A stretch of 64,000 bases of DNA from a virus, in IMG/VR virus record IMGVR_UViG_3300030616_000250, positions 1 through 64,000 of that record. One strand, written 5' to 3'. Each line of letters begins with the position of its first letter. Position 1 is the stretch's first letter. A program made the translations under genes and the position numbers. A model generated the notes under the pieces. The model saw only the letters and a list, made by a program, of their open reading frames with translations. It was not told the DNA's origin and did no database searches. Positions 3,823 to 37,730 of the stretch are shown piece by piece.

Positions 3823-4175
3823 AACCGTAGACCTGCAAAAAGCACCGTGGCAGCTATTCCCTTTACTTGGTATCCGAATAATCTGGCCTGATGACATAGA
3901 CATGGAGGAGTTTTTGAGAGGTGACGAGTGTATTGTAGAAATAGAGGTGCCCGAATGTACCTCTGGATAGATATGCTATGGCTATGCACATTACTATTTG
4001 TGCTATTTTGCACTCACGGAGCCGCTTATCTCATAGGCTATCTGGTACGCAGGCACCGGACACGGGAAGAGGTGCAGCGGGATTGCAAGCATAAGAATAT
4101 ACAATACGTGGACGAAATCAATTGTTATATGTGCAGCGATTGTGGAGTTATTTTCAGAAACAGGAATGAAATATA

Positions 4176-5932: not shown

Positions 5933-6195
5933 TGCGGGAAGGCAAGGCATGGATAATAGAATTCGAGATGACTATTGTTTTATATATGCTAATTGTATGG
6001 AAAGCGTATTAAGGAGAATTAGAGGTAAACACAGAGCCCAACGCAAAGGACAATTTTTTTAATTAACAGGATTTATTAATTTTTTAACCGACGCTTTTAC
6101 AATATATATAAAACAATTAATTCTTGAATCCCACTATATTGCCTGGCAAGGGTGCATTCCTTGCAATGGGGGTTCGATTCCCCCTCCCGCTACCA
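5933..6195 (+). ncRNA. tRNA-like RNA with a ~190-nt insertion at the D-loop position
   Basis: GCGGGA 5934-5939 pairs with TCCCGC 6185-6190; T-arm GGGGG-TTCGATT-CCCCC 6168-6184; encoded ACCA 6192-6195; AGGCAA/TTGCCT stem; GCAAGG-GTGCATT-CCTTGC hairpin. Confidence 0.6.
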
Positions 6196-6202
6196 TAAAA
6201 CC

Positions 6203-6425: not shown

Positions 6426-6848
6426 ATGGCATACGATGTAGAAACATGGGCTAAAGCTAAAGCTGATTATGAATCAGGTAATTTTTCCGTTGAAAAACTT
6501 GGGAAAAAGTGGGGAATTTCTGATACTCAAATAGAAAACAAAATAGCTAAAGAAGGGTGGGTTAAAGGAAAAAACGCTCCACTTATACAACAATCTATTG
6601 CTGATAAGAACATAGAAGCTTTTGCAAAGGCAAATTGTACACATAAAGACATAGTAGATAAAATGGTCGCTGTTATATTAAGTGATGACGACAACAGGCT
6701 TAGGTTGTCTTATATTCAGGAATATAATAAAATGTGTGGCACTCTTGCACCATCCAAAAAAGAAGTAACCGGGGAAGGCGGCAAAGACCTTATTCCCAAT
6801 ATGACTAAAGAACAGCTATTGGAAAAGCTGAGAAATATTACAGGATGA
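6426..6848 (+). CDS. terS: Terminase small subunit
   Basis: N-terminal HTH (KADYESG..S..KLGKKWGIS), C-terminal KKEVTGEGGKDL; overlaps start of terL. Confidence 0.85.
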   Translation: MAYDVETWAKAKADYESGNFSVEKLGKKWGISDTQIENKIAKEGWVKGKNAPLIQQSIADKNIEAFAKANCTHKDIVDKMVAVILSDDDNRLRLSYIQEYNKMCGTLAPSKKEVTGEGGKDLIPNMTKEQLLEKLRNITG

Positions 6849-22406: not shown

Positions 22407-23098
22407 GATTCGTAACATGTGGTAGAATAGCATTTACCCGGCAAGTGGTTGAGTCGATATTCAAGTATAATCCTGTGGTTAGGAGATACCCTTGGATAAT
22501 AGCCGATGATAACTCAGAACCGTGTATGAGAAACTATTTTGATTCTCTTGACTTGGGTATGACCTATTTGTGGCACGAAAAACGTAAGGGGATTAATGCC
22601 AATTTAAAGCAGATGTTTGATGAGGCGCGGGGCAAATTTGACCTTCTTCTTATATTTGTGAATGACTTTGTATGTCTCAGGGAAGTGGATATTGGTGCAA
22701 TGATAGAGTTTTTTGCAGATACTCCCGAAGCCGGGCAGGTGCAGATGTTTCATTGGAAAGGTAAAATAGGAGACAAGAAGCGCGAGCGCAGCATGACAAA
22801 TTGGATAACCGGAGACCCTATAAAGGTCTCACAGATACTTCAGGTGGGAAACGAAACATTATTAGAGGCAAATTGGGTATGGACAGACGGTGTTAATTTT
22901 ACAAGAATACTACCGGAAGTGGATTACTTTGAAGGTTCCCTGGGACTTCCGAAAGAGGAAAAATACATTAAAATAGCCGAAATAACCAAAGGCAAAAATT
23001 TTATGGATACCGGCATGAAAATATATGAAATGGCAGATCAGCCGTTTCTTCATCTCGATCATGATGGTAAAAATAAAACAAAGGGGACTATTGCATGA
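22385..23098 (+). CDS. GT-A fold (GT2-like) glycosyltransferase
   Basis: VTCGR, IIADDNS, G.NAN, FVNDF, FLHL. Confidence 0.65.
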   Translation: MVLRLGIGFVTCGRIAFTRQVVESIFKYNPVVRRYPWIIADDNSEPCMRNYFDSLDLGMTYLWHEKRKGINANLKQMFDEARGKFDLLLIFVNDFVCLREVDIGAMIEFFADTPEAGQVQMFHWKGKIGDKKRERSMTNWITGDPIKVSQILQVGNETLLEANWVWTDGVNFTRILPEVDYFEGSLGLPKEEKYIKIAEITKGKNFMDTGMKIYEMADQPFLHLDHDGKNKTKGTIA

Positions 23099-23102
23099 AA
23101 AA

Positions 23103-23159
23103 TTTTAACGTACGCCAAAAGGCTGAACGTCTAAAGATTTTAGCCTTTGGCAGTTGGGC
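23103..23159 (-). other. attC-like site of cassette 1 (57 bp)
   Basis: Minus strand GCCCAAC-TGCCAAAGGCT...AGCC(T)TTTGGC-GTAC-GTTAAAA with one unpaired base. Confidence 0.75.
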
Positions 23160-23869
23160 GAAGGTTTTTCTTTTAATTAAGAAAGGTGCGACATGCTCTT
23201 TAAGTGATTTACCTCTTTTATTTAAGCATAACGAGAAACAAGATAATCAAAGCTCCAATAGTAAAATAAAAAGAAATGCGCTCACGGAATATGCTCGAAA
23301 CATAATAGTCATCAATATCTTCATAATATTGGGTGTTTTGTTTCTTGTGTTCGGGATCATTAGCCATATCTTTGGTAGTAGAATCTTCGAAATATTTAGC
23401 TCGTTTTGAGTCAAGATTTCTATGTGAATAAATGTTCTTTGAAATAAGGGGAGAAGGGAAATAAAAGGTTTTATAATAGTTTAAGTGCTATTAAAAGCAT
23501 GATAAGGGCAATTATAAATTTACTATCTATCCATAGTAACATAATAAAACCCCCCATGCAACACCTTGATTTCCAGCTATTCCGTTTACCCTTTGTTTAA
23601 TTAAACGCTCGGTTGCCGTAATTGGTGATTAAACCAATTAATCGGCTGGTGGGTTTTGGTATATAGTCACCCCTGCGTTTACCAAATCAAACAAAGGCGC
23701 GCCCCCTTCTCATAAGCCAAGAAATAATCTTGGTCATAACTAACCTCCTTTTGGGAAGTTGAGGAGGGGGATTCCTCCCCGTTATTTCAAAGAGCTATGT
23801 ATTAATCTTTAACAAAGGCTTTTCTCTTATGTCGCACAAGAAAAGAATCAGAGAACGAATTGAAACCAA
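23109..23869 (-). mobile_element. Reverse-oriented integron-type cassette 1 inserted in 52-bp site A
   Basis: Bounded by attC-like 23103-23159 and site A; deleting it restores a perfect TTTTAAC/GTTAAAA pair. Confidence 0.72.
23218..23542 (-). pseudogene. Frameshifted two-TM membrane protein gene (cargo of cassette 1)
   Basis: MLLWIDSKFIIALIMLLIAL.. stops at 23471; adjacent frame continues NYYKTFYFPSP...RISFYFTIGALIILFLVMLK; removing one A at CTTAAAC joins them. Confidence 0.5.
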
Positions 23870-23915
23870 CGAAACAAACGGTGGAAGTTTTAATTTCCAC
23901 CTTTGGGAGTTAAAA
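23864..23915. repeat. 52-bp attC-like target site A (occupied)
   Basis: AACCAAC GAAAC AAACGGTG GAAGTTTTAATTTC CACCTTT GGGA GTTAAAA. Confidence 0.8.
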
Positions 23916-24865
23916 TGAAAATACTTGTAACAGGCTGTGCAGGCTTTATCGGAACCAATCTATGTAAAAGACTCGTTGAACACGGGCACGAGGTAATAGG
24001 AATAGACAATTTCAGCTATGGTTATACTTCAAACATGAAAGACATAGGCTTTGGCAATTATTATGCCTCAGACGTGCGGTACTTTAACGGAGACAACTTT
24101 GGTGACATTGACGTTATTTATCATCAGGCAAACCTTAGAAAGAATATATCCTCAAACAAGCCCGACGAAGACATAGACATCACAATCCGGGGAACGTGCA
24201 ATCTATTACAATATGCCATCAAAAACAATGTGAAAAAGTTTATATATGCCTCATCTTCCCTTGCATACGGCAAATCCGATCCCGTTGTTACAGAAGAGAG
24301 CCCGCTATGTCCTATTTGTATCTATGGAATATCAAAAGTAGCTGCTGAAAAGCTCGTTAAATACTATCACGGAACCAACGGACTCGAAACGACAATCCTT
24401 CGGTATTTTCAGGGTTACGGGCAGTATCAGGACAGCCAAAGGGGAGCCGCAATAATACCGAAGACTATTCGGAATATGTTTGAAAACAACCCTATTATCA
24501 TAAATGGTGATGGCTCACAGACCCGTTCATTCACTTGGATAGAAGATATTATAGACGTGCTTATGATGCCATTGTTCGATAGCAAAATGTCCGGTGAGAC
24601 TTATAACGTAACAGCGGGGAAAGAGTATTCTATAATTGAAATAATTGATTTAATAATGAACTGCTATTGTGAATTATACCCTGAGAAGAAAGTAAACAGG
24701 ACTGACAGACTATGTTACAGAGCCGCCCTCCCGGATGACATAAAGCACCTTGCGGGAAACAATGACAAGATAAGAGACCTTGGTGTTAAATTCAATATGG
24801 ATATTCACGAAAACATAAAGGAAACGATAAGATTTTATGAACGTTACCATACTCAGTCATTATAG
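23915..24865 (+). CDS. NAD-dependent nucleotide-sugar epimerase/dehydratase (extended SDR)
   Basis: VTGCAGFIG, YASSS, YGISK (YxxxK), GDGSQTRSF. Confidence 0.93.
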   Translation: MKILVTGCAGFIGTNLCKRLVEHGHEVIGIDNFSYGYTSNMKDIGFGNYYASDVRYFNGDNFGDIDVIYHQANLRKNISSNKPDEDIDITIRGTCNLLQYAIKNNVKKFIYASSSLAYGKSDPVVTEESPLCPICIYGISKVAAEKLVKYYHGTNGLETTILRYFQGYGQYQDSQRGAAIIPKTIRNMFENNPIIINGDGSQTRSFTWIEDIIDVLMMPLFDSKMSGETYNVTAGKEYSIIEIIDLIMNCYCELYPEKKVNRTDRLCYRAALPDDIKHLAGNNDKIRDLGVKFNMDIHENIKETIRFYERYHTQSL

Positions 24866-25490
24866 AAGCGGTATCTACTGGCTGATAGAGATACTGAAGC
24901 GGAACATACCGAAGTTTCACTTGTACCCTGAGAACAACTTTGCGCACCTTGAGGTAACGAGAAACCCCAATGTGCCAAAGGCTATTCTATTGGTAAGAGA
25001 CCCCAGGGATTGCTTTGTGTCGTCTTATTCCTGCAATGTACAGAGGGCTGCGAATGACAAGGCATGGGCAGAGGGTAGAAAATGGGAGGGCAGGAGTTTT
25101 AAGGACACGCTCACATGGGAATACAGGGAAGTGCTTAACCGAAATAAAGAGGTCATATTAAAGCTTAATCCCGTTGAATACTGGGTAAAATATTACACTG
25201 ACTGGCTCGCTGAAAAGACCCCAAAGATAATGGTAAGATATGAAGATTTACACAATAATCAGGAATTTGAAATAAAGAGAATTCGCAGCTTTTACGGATT
25301 TGACCCTGACAAAAGAGTAGAGGCGTTGGATAGAACAAAGTCGTATAGCTTTGAATACAAACCTACAGATACCTATACACCAAGAACACCGGGTAACTGG
25401 AAAAAGGTATTCGATCACGAAGACAATGAGTATGTATGGAAAATGGCAGGTAAACTTATGAGGGAGTTTGGTTATGAGAGAAATGGATAA
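24837..25490 (+). CDS. Sulfotransferase (Sulfotransfer_1-like)
   Basis: SHYRSGIYW, LVRDPRDCFVS, RYEDL, GNWK. Confidence 0.88.
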   Translation: MNVTILSHYRSGIYWLIEILKRNIPKFHLYPENNFAHLEVTRNPNVPKAILLVRDPRDCFVSSYSCNVQRAANDKAWAEGRKWEGRSFKDTLTWEYREVLNRNKEVILKLNPVEYWVKYYTDWLAEKTPKIMVRYEDLHNNQEFEIKRIRSFYGFDPDKRVEALDRTKSYSFEYKPTDTYTPRTPGNWKKVFDHEDNEYVWKMAGKLMREFGYERNG

Positions 25491-26067
25491 CAGGGATATA
25501 CCGTGGAAAGTAACAGTACCCACAGACGAAAACACCAAACTGTTAAGAAGCACCATTGATTATATTGCCAAGTTGTATCCACCGCCTTTGAAAGTTTTTG
25601 ACGTTGGAGCAAAAGAGGGCTATTCCGTAAACTATATGAAGAGTCTGGGATATGACGTGTTGGGAACCGATATAAGGGAAAACTTTATAGAATACGCCCA
25701 AAGTCGCGGATGGAATGTTATTTTTGACGATATTATAGATACTAAAATAAAAGACAGGTTTGATATTGTGTTTATGAGGCATTGCCTGGAGCATGTAAGG
25801 CACGAGCGCAAGATGTTTAAAAATGGCGTGTCCCTGTTAAAAAAGGGTGGTGTTATAATAATTCAGGTTCCCATAGAGACCAAGAGCCAGTATGAAGCAC
25901 ACAAAAGAAAAAAGCACCTCACCTATTTCCCCTCATTCAACTTTTTCAAAGACAACTTCCTGAAATCACAGAAAGGCGTTGAGACTGTGGTATTGGATAT
26001 GGCAAGCACTTTGGGAATAGAAACAGCGGGATTAAAGGATATTTTCTATATAGGCAAAAAATTATGA
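25483..26067 (+). CDS. Class I SAM methyltransferase (Methyltransf_11/23-like)
   Basis: VFDVGAKEG, GTDI, FDIVFMRHCLEHV, LKKGG...VP. Confidence 0.88.
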   Translation: MDNRDIPWKVTVPTDENTKLLRSTIDYIAKLYPPPLKVFDVGAKEGYSVNYMKSLGYDVLGTDIRENFIEYAQSRGWNVIFDDIIDTKIKDRFDIVFMRHCLEHVRHERKMFKNGVSLLKKGGVIIIQVPIETKSQYEAHKRKKHLTYFPSFNFFKDNFLKSQKGVETVVLDMASTLGIETAGLKDIFYIGKKL

Positions 26068-26639
26068 AAAATGAGTATCGAAACAAACTCTATGAAAAAC
26101 ACCGGGAACCGTCATGGGACAAAGCTCACGGATGTTTCACCGTAGCCAGACTGGTCAAAGCGTTTAATGCAAAAGTAATAGCTGAAATAGGGGTTTGTGT
26201 GGGAAACACCGCAGTAGAAATATTACACGAAAACAAGCTATTGTATTATTTAATGGTAGATCACTGGAAAGATATTTCAAAATACGAGCTTATACTTAAT
26301 AACTTTTCCTCTACCGGAGTGGAAATAAAACGTTCTGATTCAATGGAAGCCCTGAAATATGTAGATGACGAATCCCTTGATTTTGTGTACATAGACACCA
26401 ATCATTCATATAAGCAGGCAAAGCGTGAGATATTTGGATGGATAAAAAAGGTAAGGCGCGGCGGAGTGCTTGCGGGCGATGGCTATGGATATATCAGGAA
26501 CGGAGACAATGGAGTAAAACGCGCTGTGCATGAAATATTCAGCGCAGATCAAATAAACGTTAATCTTGGCCCGGACTGTGTGTTCTGGGTAATGAGGCCG
26601 TATGATACACGAAACAGCAAGTTTTCACGGAATGCCTAA
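26064..26639 (+). CDS. SAM methyltransferase (Methyltransf_24-like)
   Basis: AEIGVCVG, LDFVYIDTNHSY, VRRGGVLAGD. Confidence 0.88.
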   Translation: MKNEYRNKLYEKHREPSWDKAHGCFTVARLVKAFNAKVIAEIGVCVGNTAVEILHENKLLYYLMVDHWKDISKYELILNNFSSTGVEIKRSDSMEALKYVDDESLDFVYIDTNHSYKQAKREIFGWIKKVRRGGVLAGDGYGYIRNGDNGVKRAVHEIFSADQINVNLGPDCVFWVMRPYDTRNSKFSRNA

Positions 26640-27003
26640 TGTCGGTGAATGTGTAGATATAGGCAAAAATACCAAAATAGGTCACAATGTATTTATAGGA
26701 AACTTTGTTAAGATAGGTGACAATTGTAATATTCAGGGAAATGTTTTTATACCTGAAGGTGTTATAATAAAAAACAATGTGTTTGTCGGGCCTTGTGCGG
26801 TGTTTACCAATACAAGAGACTTTGATAATATCGGCAAGCATAAATTTGATTCGACTATTGTAAAGGATAATGTTATTATAGGAGCAAACGCAACTATTGT
26901 CTGTGGAATAACAATATGGGAAAATGCCAGAATAGCTGCGGGTTCAGTAGTAACAAAAGATGTGGACGAAAACCAAACAGTGAAAGGAAATCCGGCAAGA
27001 TGA
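26602..27003 (+). CDS. Hexapeptide-repeat N-acetyltransferase (WbpD/WlbB-like)
   Basis: IGxNxxIG repeats, GPCAVFTN, IGANATI, AGSVVTKDV...GNPAR. Confidence 0.9.
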   Translation: MIHETASFHGMPNVGECVDIGKNTKIGHNVFIGNFVKIGDNCNIQGNVFIPEGVIIKNNVFVGPCAVFTNTRDFDNIGKHKFDSTIVKDNVIIGANATIVCGITIWENARIAAGSVVTKDVDENQTVKGNPAR

Positions 27004-28046
27004 TAAACGTAGCTTTTGTAGGATGTGGGCGTATAAGCAAAAAACACTATGAAGCGGTGTCGACTAATAAGAATCTTAAACTTGTTGCCGTATGTGATAT
27101 TGTTGAAAAACGTGCAAAAGACATGGCGGAGCAGGCAAAGGTTCCCTATTATCTTGATTATAACGAAATGATGCATAAGGAAAACATTCACGTAGTCTCG
27201 GTAATGACCGAAGCCGGATATCATGCAAAGATAGTAATTGACCTTGCGAAGTTTGGGAAGGTGGTTATAGTAGAGAAGCCGATGGCGCTTAAATTAAGTG
27301 ATGCTGACGAGATGATAAAAGCATGTAAAAATGGCAAAACAGACCTTGTTGTTGTTAAACAGAATCGCTATAATCAAACCGTTATGAAGTTAAAGGATGC
27401 CGTAGAAAGAGGTCGTTTTGGTAAAATGATTCTTGGTACGGTTCGATTGAGATGGAACAGAAGCCAGACATATTTTGATATGGACGATTGGCGGGGTACA
27501 TGGAGTCTTGATGGTGGGGTTTTCGCTTCTCAGGCAAGCCATCATGTAGACCTTTTGCAGTGGATAATGGGGCCTGTTAAAAGTGTTTATGCAAAGACCA
27601 CAAGAAGACTTCTCGACATAGAAGTAGAAGATACCGGAATAGTCATGCTTGAGTTTTATGATGGCTCTCTCGGATTGATAGAAGCAACAAACGCCGCTCA
27701 ACCAAAAAACATAGAAGGCTCGTTAAGCGTTCTCGGACAAGGTGGGACTGTAGTAATCGGTGGAGTAGCGGTAAATAAACTGGAAACTTGGGAGTTCTGG
27801 GAAAAAGAAGAAGATGACGAGAAAATGTTTGATTTCAGTGAAAACCCGTCAAATGTATATGGGTTCGGACACGTTAGACTTTATAATGAAATTGTTGAAA
27901 GGGTTAAACATGACAGGGGGAATCTATTAAGCGGGGAAGAGGGCAGAAAGTCTCTTGAACTTATCAATGCAATCTATGAGAGTGCTGAGACAGGGAAAGA
28001 AGTGAGAATTAAATTTCAACCGGAACATGTGAGGTTGGGAAAATGA
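27000..28046 (+). CDS. Gfo/Idh/MocA oxidoreductase, UDP-sugar 3-dehydrogenase (WbpB/WlbA-like)
   Basis: GCGRIS, VEKPMA, VVKQNRYN, WRGTWSLDGG..QASHHVD, NVYGFGH. Confidence 0.9.
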   Translation: MINVAFVGCGRISKKHYEAVSTNKNLKLVAVCDIVEKRAKDMAEQAKVPYYLDYNEMMHKENIHVVSVMTEAGYHAKIVIDLAKFGKVVIVEKPMALKLSDADEMIKACKNGKTDLVVVKQNRYNQTVMKLKDAVERGRFGKMILGTVRLRWNRSQTYFDMDDWRGTWSLDGGVFASQASHHVDLLQWIMGPVKSVYAKTTRRLLDIEVEDTGIVMLEFYDGSLGLIEATNAAQPKNIEGSLSVLGQGGTVVIGGVAVNKLETWEFWEKEEDDEKMFDFSENPSNVYGFGHVRLYNEIVERVKHDRGNLLSGEEGRKSLELINAIYESAETGKEVRIKFQPEHVRLGK

Positions 28047-28486
28047 TAAGTGGAGATGCGTGGATTGATAACGATGTTAAATTGATAGGAGAACAGGATA
28101 TTTGGCATTATGCACTTATCCGGGGTAATGCTGAAATAGGAAACAATTGCAGCATAGGCAGCTATACTGAAATAGCACATGATGTTATTATAGAGGATAA
28201 TGTTCGCGTTCATTCAAAGGGTTTTATACCTGAGTATACGATTATAAAAAGAGGTGCCTGGATAGGCCCCTGTTGTACTATTGTAAATGATTTACACCCG
28301 CAAACCAACGGAAAATACAGAAAAGGAATAACCATAGGAGAGGGTGCTATTATCGGTGCAAATACTACTCTTATGGCTGACATAGGAAAAAACGCTATTG
28401 TCGGTGCTGGTTCAGTAGTTACTAAACCCGTGCCAGAAGGAGTAATTGTTTATGGAAATCCCGCTATGCGACATAAGGGCAAGTGA
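28043..28486 (+). CDS. Second hexapeptide-repeat acetyltransferase
   Basis: IGNNCSIG, WIGP...ND.HP, IGANTT, GAGSVVTK...YGNPA. Confidence 0.9.
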   Translation: MISGDAWIDNDVKLIGEQDIWHYALIRGNAEIGNNCSIGSYTEIAHDVIIEDNVRVHSKGFIPEYTIIKRGAWIGPCCTIVNDLHPQTNGKYRKGITIGEGAIIGANTTLMADIGKNAIVGAGSVVTKPVPEGVIVYGNPAMRHKGK

Positions 28487-29561
28487 CGCTCATTACAGAG
28501 ACGAAATAGACGAAGCCGTTAAAAGAATAATTGACGACTCAAGCTTCATACTCGGTAAACCGGTAGAGGAGTTTGAAAAAAACTTTGCAAAGTATATTGG
28601 GACGAAACACGCAATAGGTGTTAGCTCGTGTACTATGGCATTATATCTTTCTCTCAAAGCTCTGGGTATTAAAGAGGGTGACGAGGTTATAGTTCCTAAT
28701 TTTACCATTGCCGCCGATATAGAGCCGGTGCTGATGTGCGGTGCCACCCCGGTTCTCTGTGGGGTCAAAGAGGACGGTTGTATAGATGAATATGAAATGA
28801 GGAATCGGATAACAAAGAGAACAGGTGCTATTATAGTTGTTCATTTATACGGTAACGCCTGTCCTGTTCCTGACATGGAGAAAATGACAGAAATCCCTAT
28901 TATTGAAGATTGCGCCCAGTCTACAGGGACTACATTTGAAGGACAGATGACGGGTTCATTTACAGACTTAGGTTGCTTTAGTTTCTTTCCTTCAAAAAAT
29001 CTCGGTGCCTATGGAGATGGCGGAATGGTTACAACCGATGATGATGAACTTGCAGGCACAATAAGAATGCTTCGTAATCACGGGCGGGCACCCGGAGAGC
29101 GATATCATCACAGCATGATAGGGGTAAACTCCAGACTTAACGCTATGCAGGCAGCCATACTTAACGTAAAGCTGAAACATCTTAATAATGCCATAAAGAA
29201 AAAAAGGAAGATAGCAAAACTATACAACAAGTATTTGAATGACATACCACAGGTTATAACACCTACTGAAATTCCAGTGGTTAATCACAGCTATTATATG
29301 TACTCTGTCAGAGCCACAGAGCGGCGTGACGAGCTGCTTAAATTCCTTGTAGATAACGGTATTAAGGCAAGTGTACACTATCCATTGCGACTGTCAGATC
29401 ATCCCATATATGCAAAATATTACAGCCCATTAGAAGATGAACCGACTATTGGGTATATACTCAGCAAAACAGTTTTAAGTTTGCCAATGTTCCCCGCACT
29501 TGAAGAAGAAGCGGTTAAATATATTTGTCAGAAAGTGAGAGAGTTTTATGAAAAAAATTAA
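28452..29561 (+). CDS. DegT/DnrJ/EryC1/StrS PLP aminotransferase (WbpE/WlbC-like)
   Basis: FILG..VEEFE, VHLYG, EDCAQS, SFFPSKNLGAYGDGG, NSRL, LSLPMFP. Confidence 0.95.
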   Translation: MEIPLCDIRASDAHYRDEIDEAVKRIIDDSSFILGKPVEEFEKNFAKYIGTKHAIGVSSCTMALYLSLKALGIKEGDEVIVPNFTIAADIEPVLMCGATPVLCGVKEDGCIDEYEMRNRITKRTGAIIVVHLYGNACPVPDMEKMTEIPIIEDCAQSTGTTFEGQMTGSFTDLGCFSFFPSKNLGAYGDGGMVTTDDDELAGTIRMLRNHGRAPGERYHHSMIGVNSRLNAMQAAILNVKLKHLNNAIKKKRKIAKLYNKYLNDIPQVITPTEIPVVNHSYYMYSVRATERRDELLKFLVDNGIKASVHYPLRLSDHPIYAKYYSPLEDEPTIGYILSKTVLSLPMFPALEEEAVKYICQKVREFYEKN

Positions 29562-29641
29562 CGTACGGCCAAGGTTTGTTGCAATTGCCTATAATCTCAC
29601 ACAAAAGTTACTGCAATTGTTTCAAACTTGGTCAGTTGTGT
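29556..29641 (-). other. attC-like site of cassette 2 (86 bp)
   Basis: Plus strand AATTAAC-GTACGGCCAAG(G)TTTG..GCAATTGC...GCAATTGT..CAAACTTGGTCA-GTTGTGT. Confidence 0.75.
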
Positions 29642-29947
29642 CTTGCCAAAATTTGCGTCATACATTCAAAAATAAGTCCAAATACACAATAAAACATCCA
29701 CCCTCTCCAACAACCTTAAAATTGCTTATTAAAGAATTAGGGCACTGGAAAAGAGCTAATGATAAAAAATATAAATATAAAACTGGTGTATTTAATCCCC
29801 ATGTAAAAATATGCTGTAGATGTAAAAACTGTAATGAAACTATAAATTATGAAATACATACTGTAATGCCGGAACCTGGTTATTTTAAAATAATACCCAA
29901 AGAAGAATATGCTTATATTAAAGAAAAATATAGAAAAAGTGAAATAA

Positions 29948-30187
29948 CTATTTTTTGTAAAAACGAATGTCTTTAACAGGATCACCGTCAGCGTTGCTAA
30001 CGCCATCAATGGCCTCAACATAAAAAGGGTTGCCATCATGAGAAAGGCGCTGTTTAAGTTCATTAAAATAAGGGTGTTTTAAACTATGTCTATCATAAAA
30101 ATCATTAGCATCCCATTTAAACGACTTTACATCATTAAAAAGATTAAGGATTTTTTCTTTGATAATTTCATACTTTTCATCAGTCAT
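29948..30187 (-). CDS. Hypothetical protein (cassette 2 cargo)
   Basis: RBS AAGGAG on minus strand; 79 aa. Confidence 0.65.
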   Translation of the reverse strand: MTDEKYEIIKEKILNLFNDVKSFKWDANDFYDRHSLKHPYFNELKQRLSHDGNPFYVEAIDGVSNADGDPVKDIRFYKK

Positions 30188-30219
30188 ACATACTCCTTTA
30201 TATGGGGTAAGAGATAATG

Positions 30220-30726
30220 TTAATAATTTTTTGTATGATGTTCAATAAGCTTTTTTTTAAAATCATTATAACACAAAGGTTCACCAAGTTCATTTTCCAT
30301 AAATACTTCAAGCCCACATTCAGGACACTTAACAAAGGCAGCGTTATGGTCAGGCCCCCATTTGGTTTTTCTGCTTGGCTGAAAAGGAACAAGATGCTTT
30401 GGACAATAAATTTGCCAACTTTCATCATACCAATATTGGTTATATTTAAACAATTTAGGTTTTTCTTTGATTTTATTAATTTCGATTTTAAGTCGTTTAG
30501 TATAGGAGTAAAACATATATGTTAGGATTAATCCCAGAGATAGCATTGTGGCTATGGTGTACAGGGACCACGGGTGGCACAATTTGCTCCCTAATATGGT
30601 CGGACGAATTTTGTCTATGGCGAAAGCTATTGTATTCAATCCTAGAGGGGATAGAAGATTCAACCATCCTTTCACTTTTTCTTTGGCTGTTTCTTCTACC
30701 GACGATATTATTAAATCCTTCAGCAT
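30220..30726 (-). CDS. Membrane-anchored Zn-ribbon hypothetical protein (cassette 2 cargo)
   Basis: Hydrophobic segment SLYTIATMLSLGLILTYMFY; CPKH...CPEC. Confidence 0.65.
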   Translation of the reverse strand: MLKDLIISSVEETAKEKVKGWLNLLSPLGLNTIAFAIDKIRPTILGSKLCHPWSLYTIATMLSLGLILTYMFYSYTKRLKIEINKIKEKPKLFKYNQYWYDESWQIYCPKHLVPFQPSRKTKWGPDHNAAFVKCPECGLEVFMENELGEPLCYNDFKKKLIEHHTKNY

Positions 30727-30804
30727 GGGGTATGCCCTTTCATAAAAATCTTTTTAGTGTATGGATAGATAAAATTGATATTTCTCTTAGCAAATTTTGG
30801 TTTG

Positions 30805-30856
30805 ATACAACGAAACAAACGGTGGAAGTTTTAATTTCCATCTTTGGAGGTTAATT
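30805..30856. repeat. 52-bp attC-like target site B (occupied)
   Basis: ATACAAC GAAAC AAACGGTG GAAGTTTTAATTTC CATCTTT GGAG GTTAATT. Confidence 0.8.
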
Positions 30857-30857
30857 T

Positions 30858-31814
30858 ATGCCCGATAAAGTTCTCCTGGTAGCCGATGTCCCAAACTGGG
30901 CATGGATGTACAAGGCTAAAGCTATACAGAAATACCTGAATGACCACTTCAAGAAAATAAGCGTTATCCATCTAAAGAAATTCCATAAGGGCTTAATGGG
31001 AAAATACCATACTGTGTTATTTTTCGGATGGATGGACAGGCGCAAAATAGCAGGGAAATACAAGGGGCTTATAGCGGGGGTATCTTCACATAACTTTGAG
31101 TATCTGCACCCTGAGAAAGCGAGAAAGTATCTTCCGAAATACAGTGCCATTACAGCTAATTCAATACTCATTTATGAAAAGCTAAAGGAATGGAATCTCA
31201 ACAAAAACATCTACTACACACCAAACGGAGTAGACGAGACAATATTCTATCCTAATCCGATTAAGCATGATAAGTTCCGTATAGGATGGATGGGACAGCC
31301 TTCAGGAAAGGGATTTAACCGGACAGACGGTATTGATATGCACGGCTACCACAATGTTTTGCTTCCCCTTGTAGAATCTCTTAAAGATGAAAAAGACATA
31401 GAATTTGACATACTTGCAAGGACACACAAGAATGCGAGAGCTTTTGATAAAATGCCTGAATACTATAATAATCTTGATTTATTTATTAGTACAGGCTTCG
31501 GAATTGGGACACCTAATCCGTTATTTGAAGCGCAAGCTTGCGGAGTAGCCGCAATAAGTACAGCCATAGGCGCAGCCCCAGAATTGATAGAAAATTCATT
31601 GAGCGGATTTTTAGTACCAAGATATTATAACAAGAAAGAAGCACAAGATAGAGCGGAAGAAATAAGAGAATGGATATTGTTTTTTAAGAAAGATAGAATA
31701 TATGCCAATGATTTTGGTAAACGTGCAAGGCATAATATAGAAAAACACTGGACATGGCGTGAATGCTCTAAAGCATACCTGCCTGTACTGACTAACCATA
31801 GGAAGAAAATATGA
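30858..31814 (+). CDS. GT-B glycosyltransferase (GT4)
   Basis: PNGVDETIF, IGWMG, LDLFIST, NPLFEAQACG, GAAPELI. Confidence 0.9.
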   Translation: MPDKVLLVADVPNWAWMYKAKAIQKYLNDHFKKISVIHLKKFHKGLMGKYHTVLFFGWMDRRKIAGKYKGLIAGVSSHNFEYLHPEKARKYLPKYSAITANSILIYEKLKEWNLNKNIYYTPNGVDETIFYPNPIKHDKFRIGWMGQPSGKGFNRTDGIDMHGYHNVLLPLVESLKDEKDIEFDILARTHKNARAFDKMPEYYNNLDLFISTGFGIGTPNPLFEAQACGVAAISTAIGAAPELIENSLSGFLVPRYYNKKEAQDRAEEIREWILFFKKDRIYANDFGKRARHNIEKHWTWRECSKAYLPVLTNHRKKI

Positions 31815-32746
31815 AAATAGCATTCGTATCTGACGTAAAAGGCTGGGCGTATGACGTTACATACAAGGGAATAAGGAAATATCTCGATGCAGACCTGTAT
31901 TATACCTCAGACGAACCCAGGATAAACTCTGACATAATCAACAGCTATGACAGGGTACATTTCTTTAACTGGCTCGGTGGACAGGAACATGCGGGAAAAC
32001 CCAACGTATCCGCTGGAGTTACACAACACAATTATGAAATTAAATGGGCTGATATATCCAAAAAGTACCTTACCCGCTATAAGAAAATAGTAGCGATATC
32101 GCAAATTCTCTATGACAAGCTGAAAGAGTGGAACCCAAATACATATCTTATTCCCAATGCAGTAGACGAGGAATTGTTCGCACCGACAGTAAATGACGGA
32201 GAGTTTACAGTCGGATTTGTAGGACAGGCAACCACCGGGGGGTTTGGTGAGGTCAAGGGTGGCGAGGGTCGTATGAAGTGGGATATCAAGGGCTTTGAGC
32301 TTATACTTAAACCATTACTTGAACGTATGAAAAGCGTAAATTTCAAGATTCACTCCTGTGATTATACAACTGCTACGCCTTATGAGAAAATGCCTGATGT
32401 ATACAAGGACATGGATGTTTTGATATGCACTTCTATTTTTGAAGGCGCTCCGTTTCCCGTATTAGAAGCTGCGTCCTGCGGTAAAGCGGTTATTGCCACA
32501 AGAGTGGGCATAACGCCGGAATTGATTAAACACAGCTATAACGGGTTTCTGGTAGACACTCCAAGAAATAGGGGTGAAATTCCAAAAGCCATAGATGACT
32601 TTGAGCGATACATAGATACTCTAAGCAGAAGCCGTGAAATGTGCAGGAAAATGGGAGAGCGTAACCGGGAAGAAATATTGAAGAAATGGACGTGGAAGCA
32701 AATTACACCTAAATGGGAGGAGTTTTTTGATGGGAATCGGAAGTGA
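31811..32746 (+). CDS. GT-B glycosyltransferase (GT4), paralog of the previous gene
   Basis: PNAVDEELF, DVLICTSIFEGAPFPVLEAASCG. Confidence 0.92.
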   Translation: MKIAFVSDVKGWAYDVTYKGIRKYLDADLYYTSDEPRINSDIINSYDRVHFFNWLGGQEHAGKPNVSAGVTQHNYEIKWADISKKYLTRYKKIVAISQILYDKLKEWNPNTYLIPNAVDEELFAPTVNDGEFTVGFVGQATTGGFGEVKGGEGRMKWDIKGFELILKPLLERMKSVNFKIHSCDYTTATPYEKMPDVYKDMDVLICTSIFEGAPFPVLEAASCGKAVIATRVGITPELIKHSYNGFLVDTPRNRGEIPKAIDDFERYIDTLSRSREMCRKMGERNREEILKKWTWKQITPKWEEFFDGNRK

Positions 32747-33578
32747 ATTAAGAGATATTAAGTGTGGGGTGTGTGGGGCTACCTATCATAATACTACTTA
32801 TGACCCCAAAAAGGATATTGTTAAAGTAAAATGCACCGATTGTGGTAATGAATGGGATGAAAAACCATTAAACAAGAGAAAGAAAACGGCAATTGAAAGG
32901 GAGGTTGTTGATTTAAGCTACAGAATAGATTACAAAGAAGTGCAACTTCACCAGACTGAAAAGCTGTTATATGGCGTGGTTAAGCAATTACTTACCAGAA
33001 TTGAAGATTTGCTGGATGACGAATAATGCACGAATATAATGATAATGGCTGTATTTATTTAGGCAATTGGCTTTATATTGGGCTTATAAAGCTATGGTGT
33101 TATTGGCGGGACGCTCTTAAAAAAGCCTATTGGCGTAAACGTGGCATTCCTCAATATGGTTGTGGTTATTATTCTGGCGAAGGAATACAAATACCACAAT
33201 ATGACACATTAGAAGAGGAAAGATTTGTTGAATTCGATAATATCGTTATTCTGCCAAGTAAAGTGTATTTCAATGCTAGAGGGATACAAATACCTATAAA
33301 GGAAAGTGATGGCAACGATTAAAAGACGCTGTAAAAACTGCCGTTTCTGGATAAACCGGGCGTGTCACAATCCTCACATAAGGATAGGTCATGCTTTGGC
33401 GAAAAGGTGTAAGGGCTGCAAAAAGGATATCTGGTTAAACAATGAAGGCTGTGATGTCGGTTCAAACGTGGTGGAAATGGAAGAAATAATAAAAAAGGTG
33501 CTTGCTTCAACTTTTCTCCAAACAGGTAAAAACTTTTGCTGCAAGCATTGGAAAAGCAAATATGAGGGTGTCGTATGA
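32727..33578 (+). CDS. Three small hypothetical ORFs (32727-33026, 33026-33322, 33306-33578), two with CxxC motifs
   Basis: Overlapping start/stop coupling. Confidence 0.5.
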
Positions 33579-34795
33579 ATGAAAAATTTGAACGATTCGT
33601 AAACACGTTGATAGTTAATTTTGACAATTTTTACAAGTCAAAAACAGGTGCCTGGTTCCTTGATGGATCGACTTTGATTGAATTTGTCTGCAATAGACGG
33701 CTTAAAGAACCCATAAATATCGGTATGGTAAATTGCAGCAAGGAGACATTTAAGGAAAGAATGTACCATTGGGAGGTTAAGGAAACCGGGGAAGATACGC
33801 TTAAAGCCGTACTTTTGGGCTACACGGTTAACGTAAAGTTCTATAAGAACCTAAATACTATCATAGCCCCTAAAGACAGGATAGAGGAAAACCTGAAGAA
33901 ACGCGATACTGCCATGAACCAATACGGGGTGTGGAGGTACAATTTAGACCAATCTCATTGGTATCACTTCCCGGTTCCCTATAAAGTCGGTGGTTTTCTG
34001 GACGACACATACCCATTATGGTTTATGAACATAAAGCATGAGGATATCAGCGGTATCTCCAATGACATCTTTTTTGACGATAAAAGGTCTGAAAACGCCG
34101 TTGAGTTAATGAAATTGATACGTGAATGCGCTGAAGCTGCGGGATTCGGTAATTATGTTTTTCCTGCATTCGGGACTCTTTTGGGAATTATAAGAGAGGG
34201 AGGGTTTATAGGTTCCGATAGAGACCTGGATCACGGGATAGCAGGATGGAAGATTACCGCACAGCAGGAAGAAAACTTCATACGTGAAGTAATGAAAGAG
34301 CGTATTGTTATTGAAAAAGCTCCCGATGGCAGGGAAGTTCCTGTAAAATACCCTCAAGGACTTGCAACCGGAAGATTCAAACACCCCCAGAAACGTAGCG
34401 ATAACGGGCGTTTTTTGTGGACATCCATAGGTCATAAGAAAATAAAGAGTCAGCAGGGGACGAAATCATGCGTGTGGAAATTCTTTAAGCATAAAGACTT
34501 TGCATGGCACTCAAAGGGAAGAAAGTGGTTAGCGGACAGAAAGTTTCCGGGAGTATTAAGTAGCCATTCCGGTAACGCTCAGGCTATTGCTAAAGGTATG
34601 CCTTTGGATATTATAGACGAATTTGTAAAAATGGAGTTTCGTGGGGTAAAAATAAACGTACCCCAAAAAGCAGGGCACTGTCTCGATATGTGGTATCCGT
34701 ATGGATGGCCGAGACCGAGAAAAGACAAAAGCTCTAAAGAATATACGATGATAATAACAAGATGGGAGGACGAGAAAAAATGGAAGATGGTGTAA
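33575..34795 (+). CDS. LicD-family nucleotidyltransferase-fold protein with apparent degenerate N-terminal duplicate
   Basis: FGTLLGIIREGGFIGSDRDLD; F.GVKINVP....LDMWY; N-terminal WFLDGSTLIEFV...FPVP..VGGFLDDTYP. Confidence 0.8.
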   Translation: MNEKFERFVNTLIVNFDNFYKSKTGAWFLDGSTLIEFVCNRRLKEPINIGMVNCSKETFKERMYHWEVKETGEDTLKAVLLGYTVNVKFYKNLNTIIAPKDRIEENLKKRDTAMNQYGVWRYNLDQSHWYHFPVPYKVGGFLDDTYPLWFMNIKHEDISGISNDIFFDDKRSENAVELMKLIRECAEAAGFGNYVFPAFGTLLGIIREGGFIGSDRDLDHGIAGWKITAQQEENFIREVMKERIVIEKAPDGREVPVKYPQGLATGRFKHPQKRSDNGRFLWTSIGHKKIKSQQGTKSCVWKFFKHKDFAWHSKGRKWLADRKFPGVLSSHSGNAQAIAKGMPLDIIDEFVKMEFRGVKINVPQKAGHCLDMWYPYGWPRPRKDKSSKEYTMIITRWEDEKKWKMV

Positions 34796-34796
34796 A

Positions 34797-34848
34797 ATTT
34801 AACTATAGAAACGGCTGTAGTTTTAATTACAGCCTTTGGAGGTTAAAA
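34797..34848. repeat. 52-bp attC-like target site C (empty)
   Basis: ATTTAAC TATAG AAACGGCT GTAGTTTTAATTAC AGCCTTT GGAG GTTAAAA; stem covaries with A and B. Confidence 0.78.
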
Positions 34849-35078
34849 TGGAAAAGGACTCAATAATGCAGGTAATAGAATCCCTTGCAAAAAAGAAAAA
34901 ACGTATCCTTACCCGTGAAGAATTTAAAATGCTTAAACGAGGTAGAAAAGAATTCCTTGAACGGGTAGACCAGACCGAGGGAAAAGCAATAAGGTTCACA
35001 AAATGGTATGACGACTGGAAGGAAAAGATATCAATGCCACTGGCTGCGAGCCATTCCTTAAGCGAAGTTTTTAAATAA
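34848..35078 (+). CDS. Hypothetical protein
   Basis: RBS GGAGG supplied by site C. Confidence 0.55.
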   Translation: MEKDSIMQVIESLAKKKKRILTREEFKMLKRGRKEFLERVDQTEGKAIRFTKWYDDWKEKISMPLAASHSLSEVFK

Positions 35079-35090
35079 AATAAATAATTA

Positions 35091-35119
35091 TTGACATTAT
35101 TCTGCATATTTTGTATTAT
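35091..35119 (+). promoter_or_regulatory. Sigma70-type promoter upstream of the virion operon
   Basis: TTGACA 35091-35096, 17-bp spacer, TATTAT 35114-35119; AT-rich upstream. Confidence 0.75.
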
Positions 35120-35141
35120 ATTATAAGATAGATACTATATA

Positions 35142-35312
35142 ATGGATAAACGCTTAAACCCTAGACGCATTTATAAAAAACCCAAAGACAAAACACAAGA
35201 GGGTATTGAATTAATAGAACACCGAAAGCGCACCAAGCGTAAGGGTCAGGTGATTTTTCACATAGACAGGGACGGCAATGTTCCTACAGTGGAAAATCGC
35301 GAGTTCTTTTAA
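35142..35312 (+). CDS. 56-aa basic protein (not in ORF track), weakly DUF2292-like
   Basis: Manual translation MDKRLNPRR...KGQVIFHIDRDGNVPTVENREFF. Confidence 0.55.
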   Translation: MDKRLNPRRIYKKPKDKTQEGIELIEHRKRTKRKGQVIFHIDRDGNVPTVENREFF

Positions 35313-35340
35313 AGCATAGCTAAATAGCCATAAAGTTAGG

Positions 35341-35385
35341 GCGTTAGCTTGTACGCAATTCAGCGTACTCGTTAACGCTTTTTTT
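35341..35385 (+). terminator. Long hairpin with T7 tract (attenuator/terminator)
   Basis: GCGTTAGC-TT-GTACGC AATTCA GCGTAC-TC-GTTAACGC TTTTTTT. Confidence 0.7.
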
Positions 35386-35391
35386 ATTTAT

Positions 35392-35667
35392 ATGCCGGAA
35401 GTCGTAAGGTGCAGAAACAGACACGTTCATTTCCGCTCCGAGGGAGTGGGGAACATTCTATTTGTCATAGGGGAAAACGCTATCTATGCAAAGTGTACCG
35501 ACAGAGGATGTAAACGCTGGACTCAGGTTAAAATCTCTTTACCGGGCGTAAACGTAGATTTTTCCAATGCAGGTATAACCCAAAAACTCATGCCTAAAAA
35601 TTTTAAATTCGACACTGACGGAAAAGACATCAAACGCGCCCCCGTTATTATAGAGGAGAAAGCATGA
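35392..35667 (+). CDS. Com-like zinc-finger protein
   Basis: VRCRNRH...ILF...IYAKCTDRGCK; directly upstream of portal. Confidence 0.45.
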   Translation: MPEVVRCRNRHVHFRSEGVGNILFVIGENAIYAKCTDRGCKRWTQVKISLPGVNVDFSNAGITQKLMPKNFKFDTDGKDIKRAPVIIEEKA

Positions 35668-37730
35668 ATAAAAGCTCCGGTTTATATAGCCCCCCTTCAA
35701 TAATGAAAGCTAACTATCGCAGCATAAGGTCAAGCAATACAGAAAAAGTAAAGCAGATATACCACGACAGGGAAAACGCAAAGAGGGCAATGCAGGGCGA
35801 TTATGACAGGGCGGTAATTGCTAACGAGTTTGTATTTGCTCTCAGCGGTATGCAGTGGTATGAAAAAGAACGCAAGAGACTTGACGAAGATGACCGATAC
35901 GCATACCAGTTTAACGTACTTACTCCAAAACTTTACACTATGGCAGGGGCTATTATTACAGACCTCCCAGACATAGACTGGTCGCCGATTGAGGGCGCAC
36001 GGACTACAGGAACGGAAGCAGTGAAATCAACCTTCTTTACAGATAAAGAGCTTTGTGATTGGCAGTGGAACCTTGTCATGCACTTTATAGGAATGCTTAC
36101 CCACGATTCATGGATACAAATGGTTGAGACAAAGAAACATCATCCTCTGGGAAACATAGCCCTTGAATGGTTAAGGCCGGGTTCTTTTGTACCATCAGCG
36201 TACTGGAAATCCAATAACGACAGGGATTGCAAAGAGGGATACAAGTCAACCTATCTTACCGCAGAAGGGATTAAGTTCAAGTATGAAGTAAACAACGAAA
36301 TGATTAATCAGGCAATTGAGCGTTACAAACAGGGAAAAAGCTTGCCACCCAAAGATATAGCAGATCAGCGCGAAACCTTTCAGGGACACATAGGAGACGA
36401 GTACGAAGTCATAGAACACTTCTGGCTTGAAATGAAAAAGGACAAGCGGCTTATAGGTAGAAAAGAAGGAATGTTTCAATGGGTTCCATTTCCCATAAGT
36501 GAAGACAGGGCTTATCTTGAACAGTTTGCCACAGAGAATGAAATAGATTGGGATACCGTAGTCGAACAACCGTATGACGACATGATACAGCACGTAACCA
36601 CAGTGGCCCCCTCTTTAGACCCGGAACTCATACTCTATGACGCAAAAACGAGAGTACAGGTTAAGGGTCTTTCCTTTTTCCACTCCACTACCCAGAGATA
36701 CAAGGGAATGAATAAAGGTCTTGCCGAGACCATGATGGATATTCAGGCAACAATTAACAAACGGATAAGCCTTGAAACAGAGTTAATCGAAAAGGCTAAC
36801 GGGGGGAGTCAGTTAGTAAATAAAATGCTGTTTGACGATGATAAGCAGGAGCGGGACTTTAAGCGTAACGCGGGGAAACCGGGAAGAAAATACTTGGTTG
36901 ACCTTGATAAAGTTCAAAAAACAGTGGAGAATGTTCACCCCGCAGACTATCCTTCTGCGCTTATGTCTCAGATTCAGTTAATGGTGGAAACACTTTTACC
37001 AATGGTATCTCAGGTATCGGATTCATGGAGTGCCGAAAGTGCGTCAGGGGAATCTGGAATACTCTATGAGCGCAAGGTTCAAATGAACAAAATAGCCACT
37101 CTGGTTTATGATGAAGCCGTTAAGCAATTAATGAACCACATAGGCGAGGCTTATTTCTATCAATGGCAAATTACCTATGGAGACGTAGAGCGCACAATAA
37201 ACATAGAGGGCGGGAAGAAACAGGTTGTTTTAAACGAACAGATGGATGAAATGGGAACCGTAAGGAACGCACCGTTATACACCCCAAGAGTACAGATAAT
37301 CGTAAAGGAAAACCCGCGCTCACCCACAAAGAGGACTTTAACCAGACAGCTTGCAGAAGAAGCGTTACAGAGAATCAATCCCGAAGTAAATCCATTGCTC
37401 TATTTAGACCACATGGAAATGTATATAGGTGCAATTGAATACGATGACGAGAAAAAAGAACGCATAGAATCTGATATGAAAATAGAGAGAATGAACGCAG
37501 TGGCGCGGTTAATATCATCTACGGCACAGAGCACAGCCACAACGAGTCAATCTGCCTTAGCTGATATGCAGGCTAAAATGGCTATGGCAGCACAGGGACA
37601 AGCAGAGCCCGGTCAAGCACAAATAGAGGAACAGGTAACAAGCCCGGAAGAACAGATACAACAGGTTCCTCAAGCAGCACAGCAACAAGCACCCCTGGAA
37701 ACGGCGGAAGTCGGTGAACAGGGTATTTAA
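35664..37730 (+). CDS. Portal protein (P22-like)
   Basis: GMQWY...R..FN.L.P, DIQATINKRIS, SGESGILYERK; 688 aa; precedes scaffold and capsid. Confidence 0.85.
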   Translation: MNKSSGLYSPPSIMKANYRSIRSSNTEKVKQIYHDRENAKRAMQGDYDRAVIANEFVFALSGMQWYEKERKRLDEDDRYAYQFNVLTPKLYTMAGAIITDLPDIDWSPIEGARTTGTEAVKSTFFTDKELCDWQWNLVMHFIGMLTHDSWIQMVETKKHHPLGNIALEWLRPGSFVPSAYWKSNNDRDCKEGYKSTYLTAEGIKFKYEVNNEMINQAIERYKQGKSLPPKDIADQRETFQGHIGDEYEVIEHFWLEMKKDKRLIGRKEGMFQWVPFPISEDRAYLEQFATENEIDWDTVVEQPYDDMIQHVTTVAPSLDPELILYDAKTRVQVKGLSFFHSTTQRYKGMNKGLAETMMDIQATINKRISLETELIEKANGGSQLVNKMLFDDDKQERDFKRNAGKPGRKYLVDLDKVQKTVENVHPADYPSALMSQIQLMVETLLPMVSQVSDSWSAESASGESGILYERKVQMNKIATLVYDEAVKQLMNHIGEAYFYQWQITYGDVERTINIEGGKKQVVLNEQMDEMGTVRNAPLYTPRVQIIVKENPRSPTKRTLTRQLAEEALQRINPEVNPLLYLDHMEMYIGAIEYDDEKKERIESDMKIERMNAVARLISSTAQSTATTSQSALADMQAKMAMAAQGQAEPGQAQIEEQVTSPEEQIQQVPQAAQQQAPLETAEVGEQGI

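Follow-up and report, generated by a model that had tools for sequence, protein, structure and literature searches.

Miniature attC-like palindromes that carry ribosome-binding sites at three glycan-operon junctions of a phage, two of them beside reversed gene cassettes

We analysed the virus record IMGVR_UViG_3300030616_000250 of IMG/VR, a single contig of 74,434 bp that CheckV rates as 100% complete. The window is the stretch formed by its first 64 kb (positions 1 to 64,000), and coordinates are those of the window unless genome positions are named. The plus strand carries almost every gene, and neighbouring genes mostly overlap by a few bases. Between the large terminase gene (6845-9037) and the portal gene (35664-37730) lies a glycan block of about 24 kb, which encodes glycosyltransferases, an NAD-epimerase, a DegT aminotransferase and a LicD-like protein. 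At three gene junctions we found a palindromic element of 52 nucleotides (nt), and at two of them the element stands beside an insert whose genes face backwards. The three elements, for which we use the labels pad A, pad B and pad C, are the following.

23864..23915, minus strand (as recombination site): pad A, a 52-nt attC-like mini-palindrome; its plus-strand end is GGGAG, a Shine-Dalgarno (SD) sequence, and the ATG of the epimerase gene starts at 23915.
30805..30856, minus strand: pad B, 94% identical to pad A; plus-strand end GGAGG, with the ATG of a glycosyltransferase gene at 30858.
34797..34848, minus strand: pad C, with no cassette attached; end GGAGG, with the ATG of a gene for 76 amino acids (aa) starting at 34848; four related phages are without pad C.

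A degenerate hairpin pattern matched exactly three times in the window, against 0.04 matches expected by chance, and a scan of the whole genome for the loop GTTTTAAT with a stem of at least 5 bp revealed no fourth copy, which confirms the shared layout of three elements given in a preliminary description of this DNA. The repeat search likewise grouped the pads as one family, the top repeat family of the window, with B 94% and C 74% identical to A over 47 nt. Their structure comprises 13 pairs, and across the three pads 39 of 39 cells are paired on the plus strand. The covariation claimed earlier for the stem is real, as three pairs are changed on both sides between A/B and C and all three changes are compensated; in pad B one G-C pair has become G-U on the plus strand, leaving an A-C mismatch on the minus strand. 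Each pad folds 2.2-3.8 standard deviations better than its shuffles. The pads are not free-standing intergenic elements, and each continues directly into the SD sequence and ATG of the downstream plus-strand gene. A bridging mini open reading frame (ORF) was rejected as a conserved feature, because the frame through pad A stops at the ATGA overlap, that through C runs five codons into the next gene and that through B ends elsewhere.

The exact pad pattern had no copy in IMG/VR, where a scan for the 15-nt arm motif returned chance matches only. The 185,579 species genomes of GTDB gave two matches to the pattern, both lacking the stem and thus due to chance, and no true copy. In Rfam, nothing relevant to the pads was found at the gathering threshold or at E<=1. 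Our own scanner for AAC-stem-GTT arrangements proved too unspecific to serve as a statistic (22 hits against 8-16 in shuffles).

To the left of pads A and B lie the two inserts, with the following features.

23095..23109, plus strand: left junction of locus A; here ATGAAAA repeats the epimerase start (23915-23921) and precedes the TTTTAAC box.
23110..23870, minus strand: cassette A, 761 nt, reversed; minus-strand 5' frame GTTGGTTTCAATTCG; it ends in its own palindrome, H1A.
23103..23159, minus strand: H1A, the attC-like palindrome of cassette A itself, CCCAAC-T-GCCAAAGGCTAAAAT ... AGCCTTTTGGC-GTAC-GTT.
29548-29562, plus strand: left junction of locus B, homologous to that of A; it reads ATGAAAAAAATTAAC.
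29563..30811, minus strand: cassette B, 1249 nt, reversed.
30220-30726, minus strand: cargo ORF of cassette B, 168 aa, with a membrane segment and a zinc-ribbon-like part.
29948-30187, minus strand: cargo ORF of cassette B, 79 aa, winged-helix-like (a protein-atlas lead).
29556..29641, minus strand: H1B, the long imperfect palindrome of cassette B itself, ending in ...CCTTGGCC-GTAC-GTT; the terminal GTAC|GTT is as in H1A.

In both insert intervals the AT skew falls or reverses and the GC content is slightly lower, the minus-strand ORFs are preceded by SD sites, and the left end of each insert is its own AAC...GTT palindrome, so that the earlier account of two minus-strand inserts bounded in this way stands. 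Cassette A carries small ORFs of 16, 28 and 49 aa, of which the latter two encode hydrophobic peptides. The 168-aa protein of cassette B is almost an orphan in database comparison, none of the cargo proteins matched Pfam or PHROG, and the zinc-ribbon and winged-helix folds are to be taken only as leads from a protein atlas. Both flanks are common to loci A and B: the left one over 25 nt, the right one over 47 nt with 94% identity. A sigma-70-like promoter was sought in or beside pad A and in insert A, and none was found.

Related sequence was found in only one of the public runs, a marine-sediment metagenome, in which a diverged strain is represented by a 419-nt contig (85% identity) across the left junction of A (22863-23203). 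Outside this contig, cover in the run is patchy and reaches neither the junctions of B nor any joint across an insert. The diverged strain keeps the left junction of A and H1A. Its left box reads TTTCAAC, compared with TTTTAAC in the window (T to C at 23106), and the 5' arm of H1A has further changes at 23120 and 23123.

The boxes at the ends of these loci pair in a distinctive way. The outer boxes around locus A are complementary at 8 of 8 positions (ATTTTAAC / GTTAAAAT), as are those around locus B (AAATTAAC / GTTAATTT), and those of site C at 7 of 8, which is better than the preliminary description had stated. Between A and B the outer boxes differ at two positions, both compensated. The inner boxes, which flank the cassette, pair at 5 of 8 positions at A and 7 of 8 at B. 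Judged by its logic, such a pattern is what would remain after strand exchange at AAC|G between a self-complementary site and a circular cassette with a self-complementary site of its own.

Beyond the window, the early region of the same genome holds a tandem arrangement of comparable units.

Genome 67,513-70,425 (L001 3513-6425), ORFs on the plus strand: cassette array of eight small-gene units (U0-U7), joined by (A/T)AC|GTT.

Seven of the eight units contain, 130-175 nt before the next junction, an exact reverse complement of the 8 nt with which they begin (GTTnnnnn; GTTGAATG / CATTCAAC in U0); the chance of one such 8-mer match is below 1% per unit. This topology goes far beyond chance and is the one expected if circular cassettes are excised and inserted at one fixed position within a folded palindrome. 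The ORFs of the array read through the AAC box into the palindromes, which are 131-175 nt long. Units 3 and 5, units 1 and 7, and units 4 and 7 share different modules, and there are therefore breakpoints at both boxes.

The array and the dispersed sites resemble each other in detail once the latter are read in cassette sense. U0, U4, U7, H1A and pads A-C have in common a 5' side of xAAC-N(1-2)-[GC]CCAAAGG, two variable bases and AAAT, and a 3' side of CC(G)TTT ... (A/T)AC|GTT. Pad C and U0 share an identical stem (AAAGGCTG / CAGCC-G-TTT) with the identical bulged G, and the arms of H1A match those of U0, U4 and U7. The best local match of H1A in the array (score 30) exceeded all 60 of 60 background samples. 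At its other end, the first 15 nt of cassette A match the start of U4, so that this cassette matches the array at both ends; only 2% of the GTTG 20-mers of the genome score as well, and the starts of the array units make up most of these. The AAC and GTT triplets do not vary in 13 of 13 sites (the three pads, H1A, H1B and the eight array units). The pads, H1A, H1B and the array palindromes, with the dispersed sites read on the minus strand, are thus members of one family of imperfect palindromes bounded by AAC...GTT. Because the dispersed sites read on the minus strand share the motifs of the array family, inserts A and B are reversed cassettes of the phage's own family, with the pad upstream and the cassette's own palindrome downstream in cassette sense. 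The two settings agree in palindrome family, in the junction core (A/T)AC|GTT and in similar 5' frames, but they differ in form and place: the palindromes of the array are 131-175 nt long with ORFs reading through them, whereas the pads are stripped down to 52 nt, and the array cassettes face forward in the early region, whereas the pads lie in a late-side operon.

A portal search identified four related contigs (L002-L005), with portal identities of 71-79% and a gene order that matches the window. As queries, the epimerase, glycosyltransferase, GT2 protein and early exonuclease retrieved no close relative from IMG/VR, and a megablast of 22-36 kb against 50,697 phage records gave no match. At junction B of L003 and L005, the DegT and glycosyltransferase genes overlap by ATGA, with neither insert nor hairpin; insert B is a lineage-specific gain. 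At junction C of all four contigs, the LicD-like and 76-aa genes overlap by 16-19 nt and there is no pad. Since the four relatives have this plain overlap, pad C is a lineage-specific insertion and not a conserved landing pad. Compared with the relatives, the window has 68 extra bases at junction C, made up of the 52-nt element and a second copy of the start of the 76-aa gene, and the original start persists as a relic.

34780..34795, plus strand: ATGGAAGATGGTGTAA, a relic of the overlap in which the 76-aa gene ancestrally started; it is now only the 3' end of the LicD-like gene, and the working start is rebuilt at 34848.

The start of the downstream gene is in fact duplicated at all three loci, as ATGAAAA at A (about 7 nt), TTTATG at B (6 nt) and at least 13 nt at C. 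Sites of the family type were sought in the corresponding loci of the relatives, and none was found. Two earlier proposals are not supported by this evidence, namely that the phage keeps landing pads of its own, since the relatives have direct gene overlaps at C and, in two of them, also at B, and that C is an empty docking site, since it is a 68-nt insertion flanked by a duplicated gene start. The expectation that related contigs would show empty alleles was borne out in one part only, in that insert B is absent from L003 and L005 but no allele with a pad alone was found.

The bottom strand of a canonical attC site begins with RYYYAAC, a spacer, the first arm and the loop, and continues with a second arm that bears the extrahelical bases (G at position 16), a spacer and GTTRRRY. 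Two or three bases are extrahelical, and the ORF of the cassette lies opposite the strand whose 3' arm bears them. The minus strand of the pads follows the layout 7-4-3-7-(8)-7-G-3-5-7, with spacers of 4 and 5 nt, an inner box of 3 bp and, at position 16, an extrahelical G. Of the RYYY/RRRY consensus only part is preserved: the pads have TTTTAAC or AATTAAC, and several array boxes fit perfectly, for example ACCTAAC / GTTAGGT.

Clusters of phage-borne attC sites have already been published (PMC9892861). Among them, TJE1_attC1, a 50-nt site of a virulent phage that IntI1 recombines, has the bottom-strand layout 7-5-3-6-(7)-6-G-3-5-7, with G at position 16 and one extrahelical base (PMC9892861). 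By this analogy, the architecture of the pads would be that of a known working mini-attC. The likeness extends to xAAC/GTTx boxes of about 7 bp, unpaired spacers of 4-5 nt, the 3-bp inner box, the single G16, the short terminal loop, a total of about 50 nt, tight packing against ORFs and a phage without an integrase. The sites described here differ from those phage attC sites in that the strand with the extrahelical base bears the genes, opposite to the arrangement in TJE1 and in bacterial integrons; in that they are single and dispersed at junctions within a late or structural-side operon instead of clustered; in that each overlaps an outward-facing SD sequence and start codon; and in that they receive no score from a covariance model whose training set was sites of TJE1 and PH101. 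Kinship of the two phages was considered and rejected, as the generic epimerase alone matches TJE1. In the same study, attC1 of the Polaribacter phage P12002L reads AAACGG, two bases, GTTTTAAT and CCGTTT on its bottom strand and failed the IntI1 assay (Supplementary Table S3, PMC9892861). The same short motifs occur on the pads' plus strand, with the bulge placed in the opposite arm, and the resemblance may be a coincidence.

IntI can also insert single cassettes outside att sites, at attG positions, which gives rise to single attC sites lacking integron integrases (SALINs) (Loot et al. 2023, bioRxiv 10.1101/2022.09.11.507474). The present inserts resemble these as isolated one-attC cassettes far from an integrase, at ordinary genome positions and in either orientation. 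They differ in that each cassette is flanked by two palindromes, the pad and its own, and not by one, in that the junctions carry duplicated gene starts and not a simple GWT join, and in that the genome is that of a phage and not of a bacterium. Provided that the sites count as attC, they are attC sites with no intI nearby, as in SALINs and in attC-site clusters without an integron integrase (CALINs).

The absence of a visible recombinase, noted earlier for the 64 kb, extends to the complete genome. Six-frame searches of the whole 74-kb sequence gave no match to the tyrosine recombinase profile PF00589 at E<=1, and serine (PF00239) and Y1 (PF01797) recombinases were absent as well. Pfam and NCBIfam scans of the unassigned early proteins returned GIY-YIG, HNH, exonuclease, DUF1064 and similar matches but no recombinase.

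Taken together, we lean slightly towards the reading in which the pads are miniature, attC-like members of the family and the cassettes at A and B were joined to them by site-specific exchange, with an enzyme acting in trans. Under this reading, the three 52-nt elements would be miniature members of a phage-borne family of folded recombination sites bounded by AAC...GTT. At A and B, a family cassette, made up of 5' frame, cargo and the palindrome that belongs to it and reversed relative to the operon, would have been joined to a pad by conservative exchange at AAC|G (C|GTT on the other strand). Such an exchange would leave the boxes swapped, so that those of the whole locus pair with each other and those of the cassette pair with each other. 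The pads would sit exactly where two translationally coupled glycan genes formerly overlapped, and the plus-strand SD sequence and start codon of the pad would re-initiate the downstream gene. The recombinase, not being phage-encoded, would act in trans and come from the host or a co-infecting element, as a tyrosine recombinase of the integron-integrase kind. As a class of mechanism, the integron-like reading is supported by family membership, by the swapping of the boxes and by the lineage-specific cargo, and the first proposal of an integron-like system therefore survives insofar as one hairpin family links the dispersed sites to an integron-like array and the boxes are swapped as expected; it fails in that the gene orientation is the reverse of the canonical rule, and host integrons as the source of the cargo and IntI as the enzyme are conjecture.

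Several observations weigh against this reading. The cargo of A and B (minus strand) and the ORFs of the array (plus strand) lie on the strand with the extra base on the 3' arm, that is, on the canonical bottom strand. With this reversed polarity, a canonical IntI would act on the ATG-proximal box and not where the cargo sits, and the resident site is therefore ambiguous, since either the pad or the longer palindrome may have been there first. Each pad has one extrahelical base compared with the canonical two or three, although the validated TJE1_attC1 also has only one. The stem of pad B survives on the plus strand only (G-T compared with A-C). The gene-start duplications that accompany the pads are not a product of conservative site-specific recombination. 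A pad without cargo at B was sought in the relatives and none was seen, and neither excised circles nor empty-pad alleles nor alternative cargo came to light, so that recombination is deduced from the logic of the sequence. Finally, the attC covariance check proposed in the preliminary description turned out negative: a substitute model, for which four IntI1-validated phage attC sites were used, produced no score above 13 bits in the genome, even with filters off, and detected 0 of 13 sites among pads, H1 palindromes and array, which is weak evidence because the model is narrow. The same model did detect one site in TJE1 that had been kept out of its training set (33 bits) and a further one in PH101 (26.6 bits).

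The position of the pads in the message also bears on their interpretation. The hairpin lies immediately 5' of the SD sequence and pairs its first G, and the pads replace the translational overlap seen in the relatives with a fresh SD sequence and ATG. The ribosome-binding site and start codon within the pad probably explain why insertions at these junctions survived. The stem of pad B, kept on the plus strand only, hints at selection on the mRNA strand. Because the relatives express the same genes without the element, a role at the RNA level is likely a secondary function and not the origin of the pads. An operator acting solely as RNA, in which a phage or host protein binds the stem-loop and controls translation or processing of the three glycan-operon genes while the neighbouring inserts are incidental, is in our view highly improbable. 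It would account for the loop GTTTTAAT being kept while the stem covaries, for the hairpin abutting the SD sequence and for all pairs holding on the mRNA strand. However, conservation of the 8-nt loop at 74% identity is expected by descent about 9% of the time and is not significant, no Rfam family matches, the cassette array has DNA palindromes homologous to the element, and the relatives manage without it.

A further alternative starts from the flanks. Composite modules of the moron type may have been moved whole by homologous or illegitimate recombination in shared flanks, the hairpin serving as a regulatory RNA that insulates the insert and restarts translation. There is a documented phage precedent in the PeSLs of T4-type phages, which combine promoter and terminator motifs and are thought to act via homologous recombination (Arbiol et al. 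2010, PMC2839356). As with PeSLs, short conserved stem-loop motifs flank lineage-specific accessory genes here and mark the boundaries of insertions and deletions between close relatives. Such modules would fit the shared flanks of A and B (25 nt on the left, 47 nt at 94% on the right), the SD sequence and ATG supplied by every pad, the stem of pad B that survives on the mRNA strand only, and the duplicated gene starts, which resemble products of illegitimate or homologous joining. We nevertheless regard this explanation as unlikely, since it predicts neither the swapped complementarity of the boxes (8 of 8 for outer boxes that differ between A and B) nor the exact 8-mer self-complementarity of the array units, and pad C occurs without any module. 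PeSLs lack AAC/GTT boxes and swapped complementarity, and the pads carry a ribosome-binding site instead of a promoter; they do not show the composite of early promoter and stem-loop terminator that characterises a PeSL. Insert A is without a promoter-like site, and the hairpin makes a poor terminator: the strong terminators of this phage have a GC-rich stem and at least seven T, and the pads have a 7-bp stem followed by the plus-strand tail CTTTGG, with no T-run. In a loose terminator scan only the minus strand of pad A passed (tail GTTTGTTT), and nothing is transcribed into pad A from that side.

Non-autonomous elements similar to miniature inverted-repeat transposable elements (MITEs) would have hairpin ends and insert at TTAA within AT-rich palindromic targets, duplicating the TTAA, with C as the minimal form and A and B as cargo carriers. 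All three loci do read TTAAC ... GTTAA, which makes a TTAA duplication formally possible; the ends of A and of B are inverted repeats, as both palindromes come from one family; and the pads are lineage-specific insertions. This origin is improbable all the same, as 8 of 8 outer complementarity would need 10-nt palindromic targets twice, and the flanking duplications are gene starts of varying length and no fixed target-site duplication. It also leaves unexplained the topology of the array and the restriction of the pads to sites paired with family cassettes. A transposase is missing (PF01797 is absent), and IMG/VR and the 185,579 species genomes hold no true copy of the motif. The hairpins and the TTAAC flank would suit elements of the IS200/IS605 type or palindrome-associated transposable elements (PATEs), but there is neither a Y1 transposase nor a true copy of the motif in these collections.

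Much more tentatively, and as a reading that we hold to be rather unlikely, the sites may belong to an exchange system that phages run themselves and that extends beyond a single array. Pads that bear a ribosome-binding site would then have been seeded at coupled junctions in essential operons, where docking would do no polar damage, and cassettes from the array or from other phages would be parked there antisense and silent. The enzyme, acting in trans, would be one other than IntI or of an unrecognised kind and would work with the opposite polarity.

The remainder of the genome offers some further context. Its promoters are of the TTGACA/TATAAT kind and its ribosome-binding sites of the GGAGG kind. 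Bases 1-1073 are a diverged copy (84-96% identity) of genome positions 72,167-73,237, so the contig wraps around. This suggests that two strains were joined in a wrap-around assembly or else that a terminal redundancy has diverged, and would put the true unit length at about 72.2 kb. ARAGORN called no tRNA on the sequence, and at 6140-6200 we noticed the 3' two-thirds of one, comprising an anticodon arm for GCA (Cys), the T arm GGGGG-TTCGATT-CCCCC and the 3' end of the acceptor with CCA; the fragment, which is without the 5' acceptor and D arm, resembles an att-site relic, though the genome has no integrase. Just before the portal gene, 35090-35390 form a stand-alone unit with a strong TTGACA-N17-TATTAT promoter, a 56-aa basic ORF and a strong terminator; the ORF is 93% identical in L002 and L003 and 77% in L004, and has no match in L005. 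On the minus strand at 3615-4013, a 132-aa ORF lies inside the otherwise plus-strand early region with flanking gaps of 131 and 162 nt; searches found neither a family match for it nor an adjoining palindrome of the family type.

Integron-type sites of phages have been reported before as clusters. Here they are single and miniature and lie at three junctions of a glycan operon, two of them with foreign genes that face backwards. As far as literature searches reach, single mini-sites that are fused to a ribosome-binding site at operon junctions and hold reversed cassettes are new. Active sites would let accessory genes into a tightly packed operon of translationally coupled genes and leave it intact, because the site rebuilds the ribosome-binding site and start codon of the next gene. 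At only 52 nt, an active site would also be a compact natural example of a translation signal joined to a structure-specific recombination site and thereby of interest for engineering. The reversed polarity of the genes, in turn, suggests that the cassette systems of phages may not be simply borrowed bacterial integrons.

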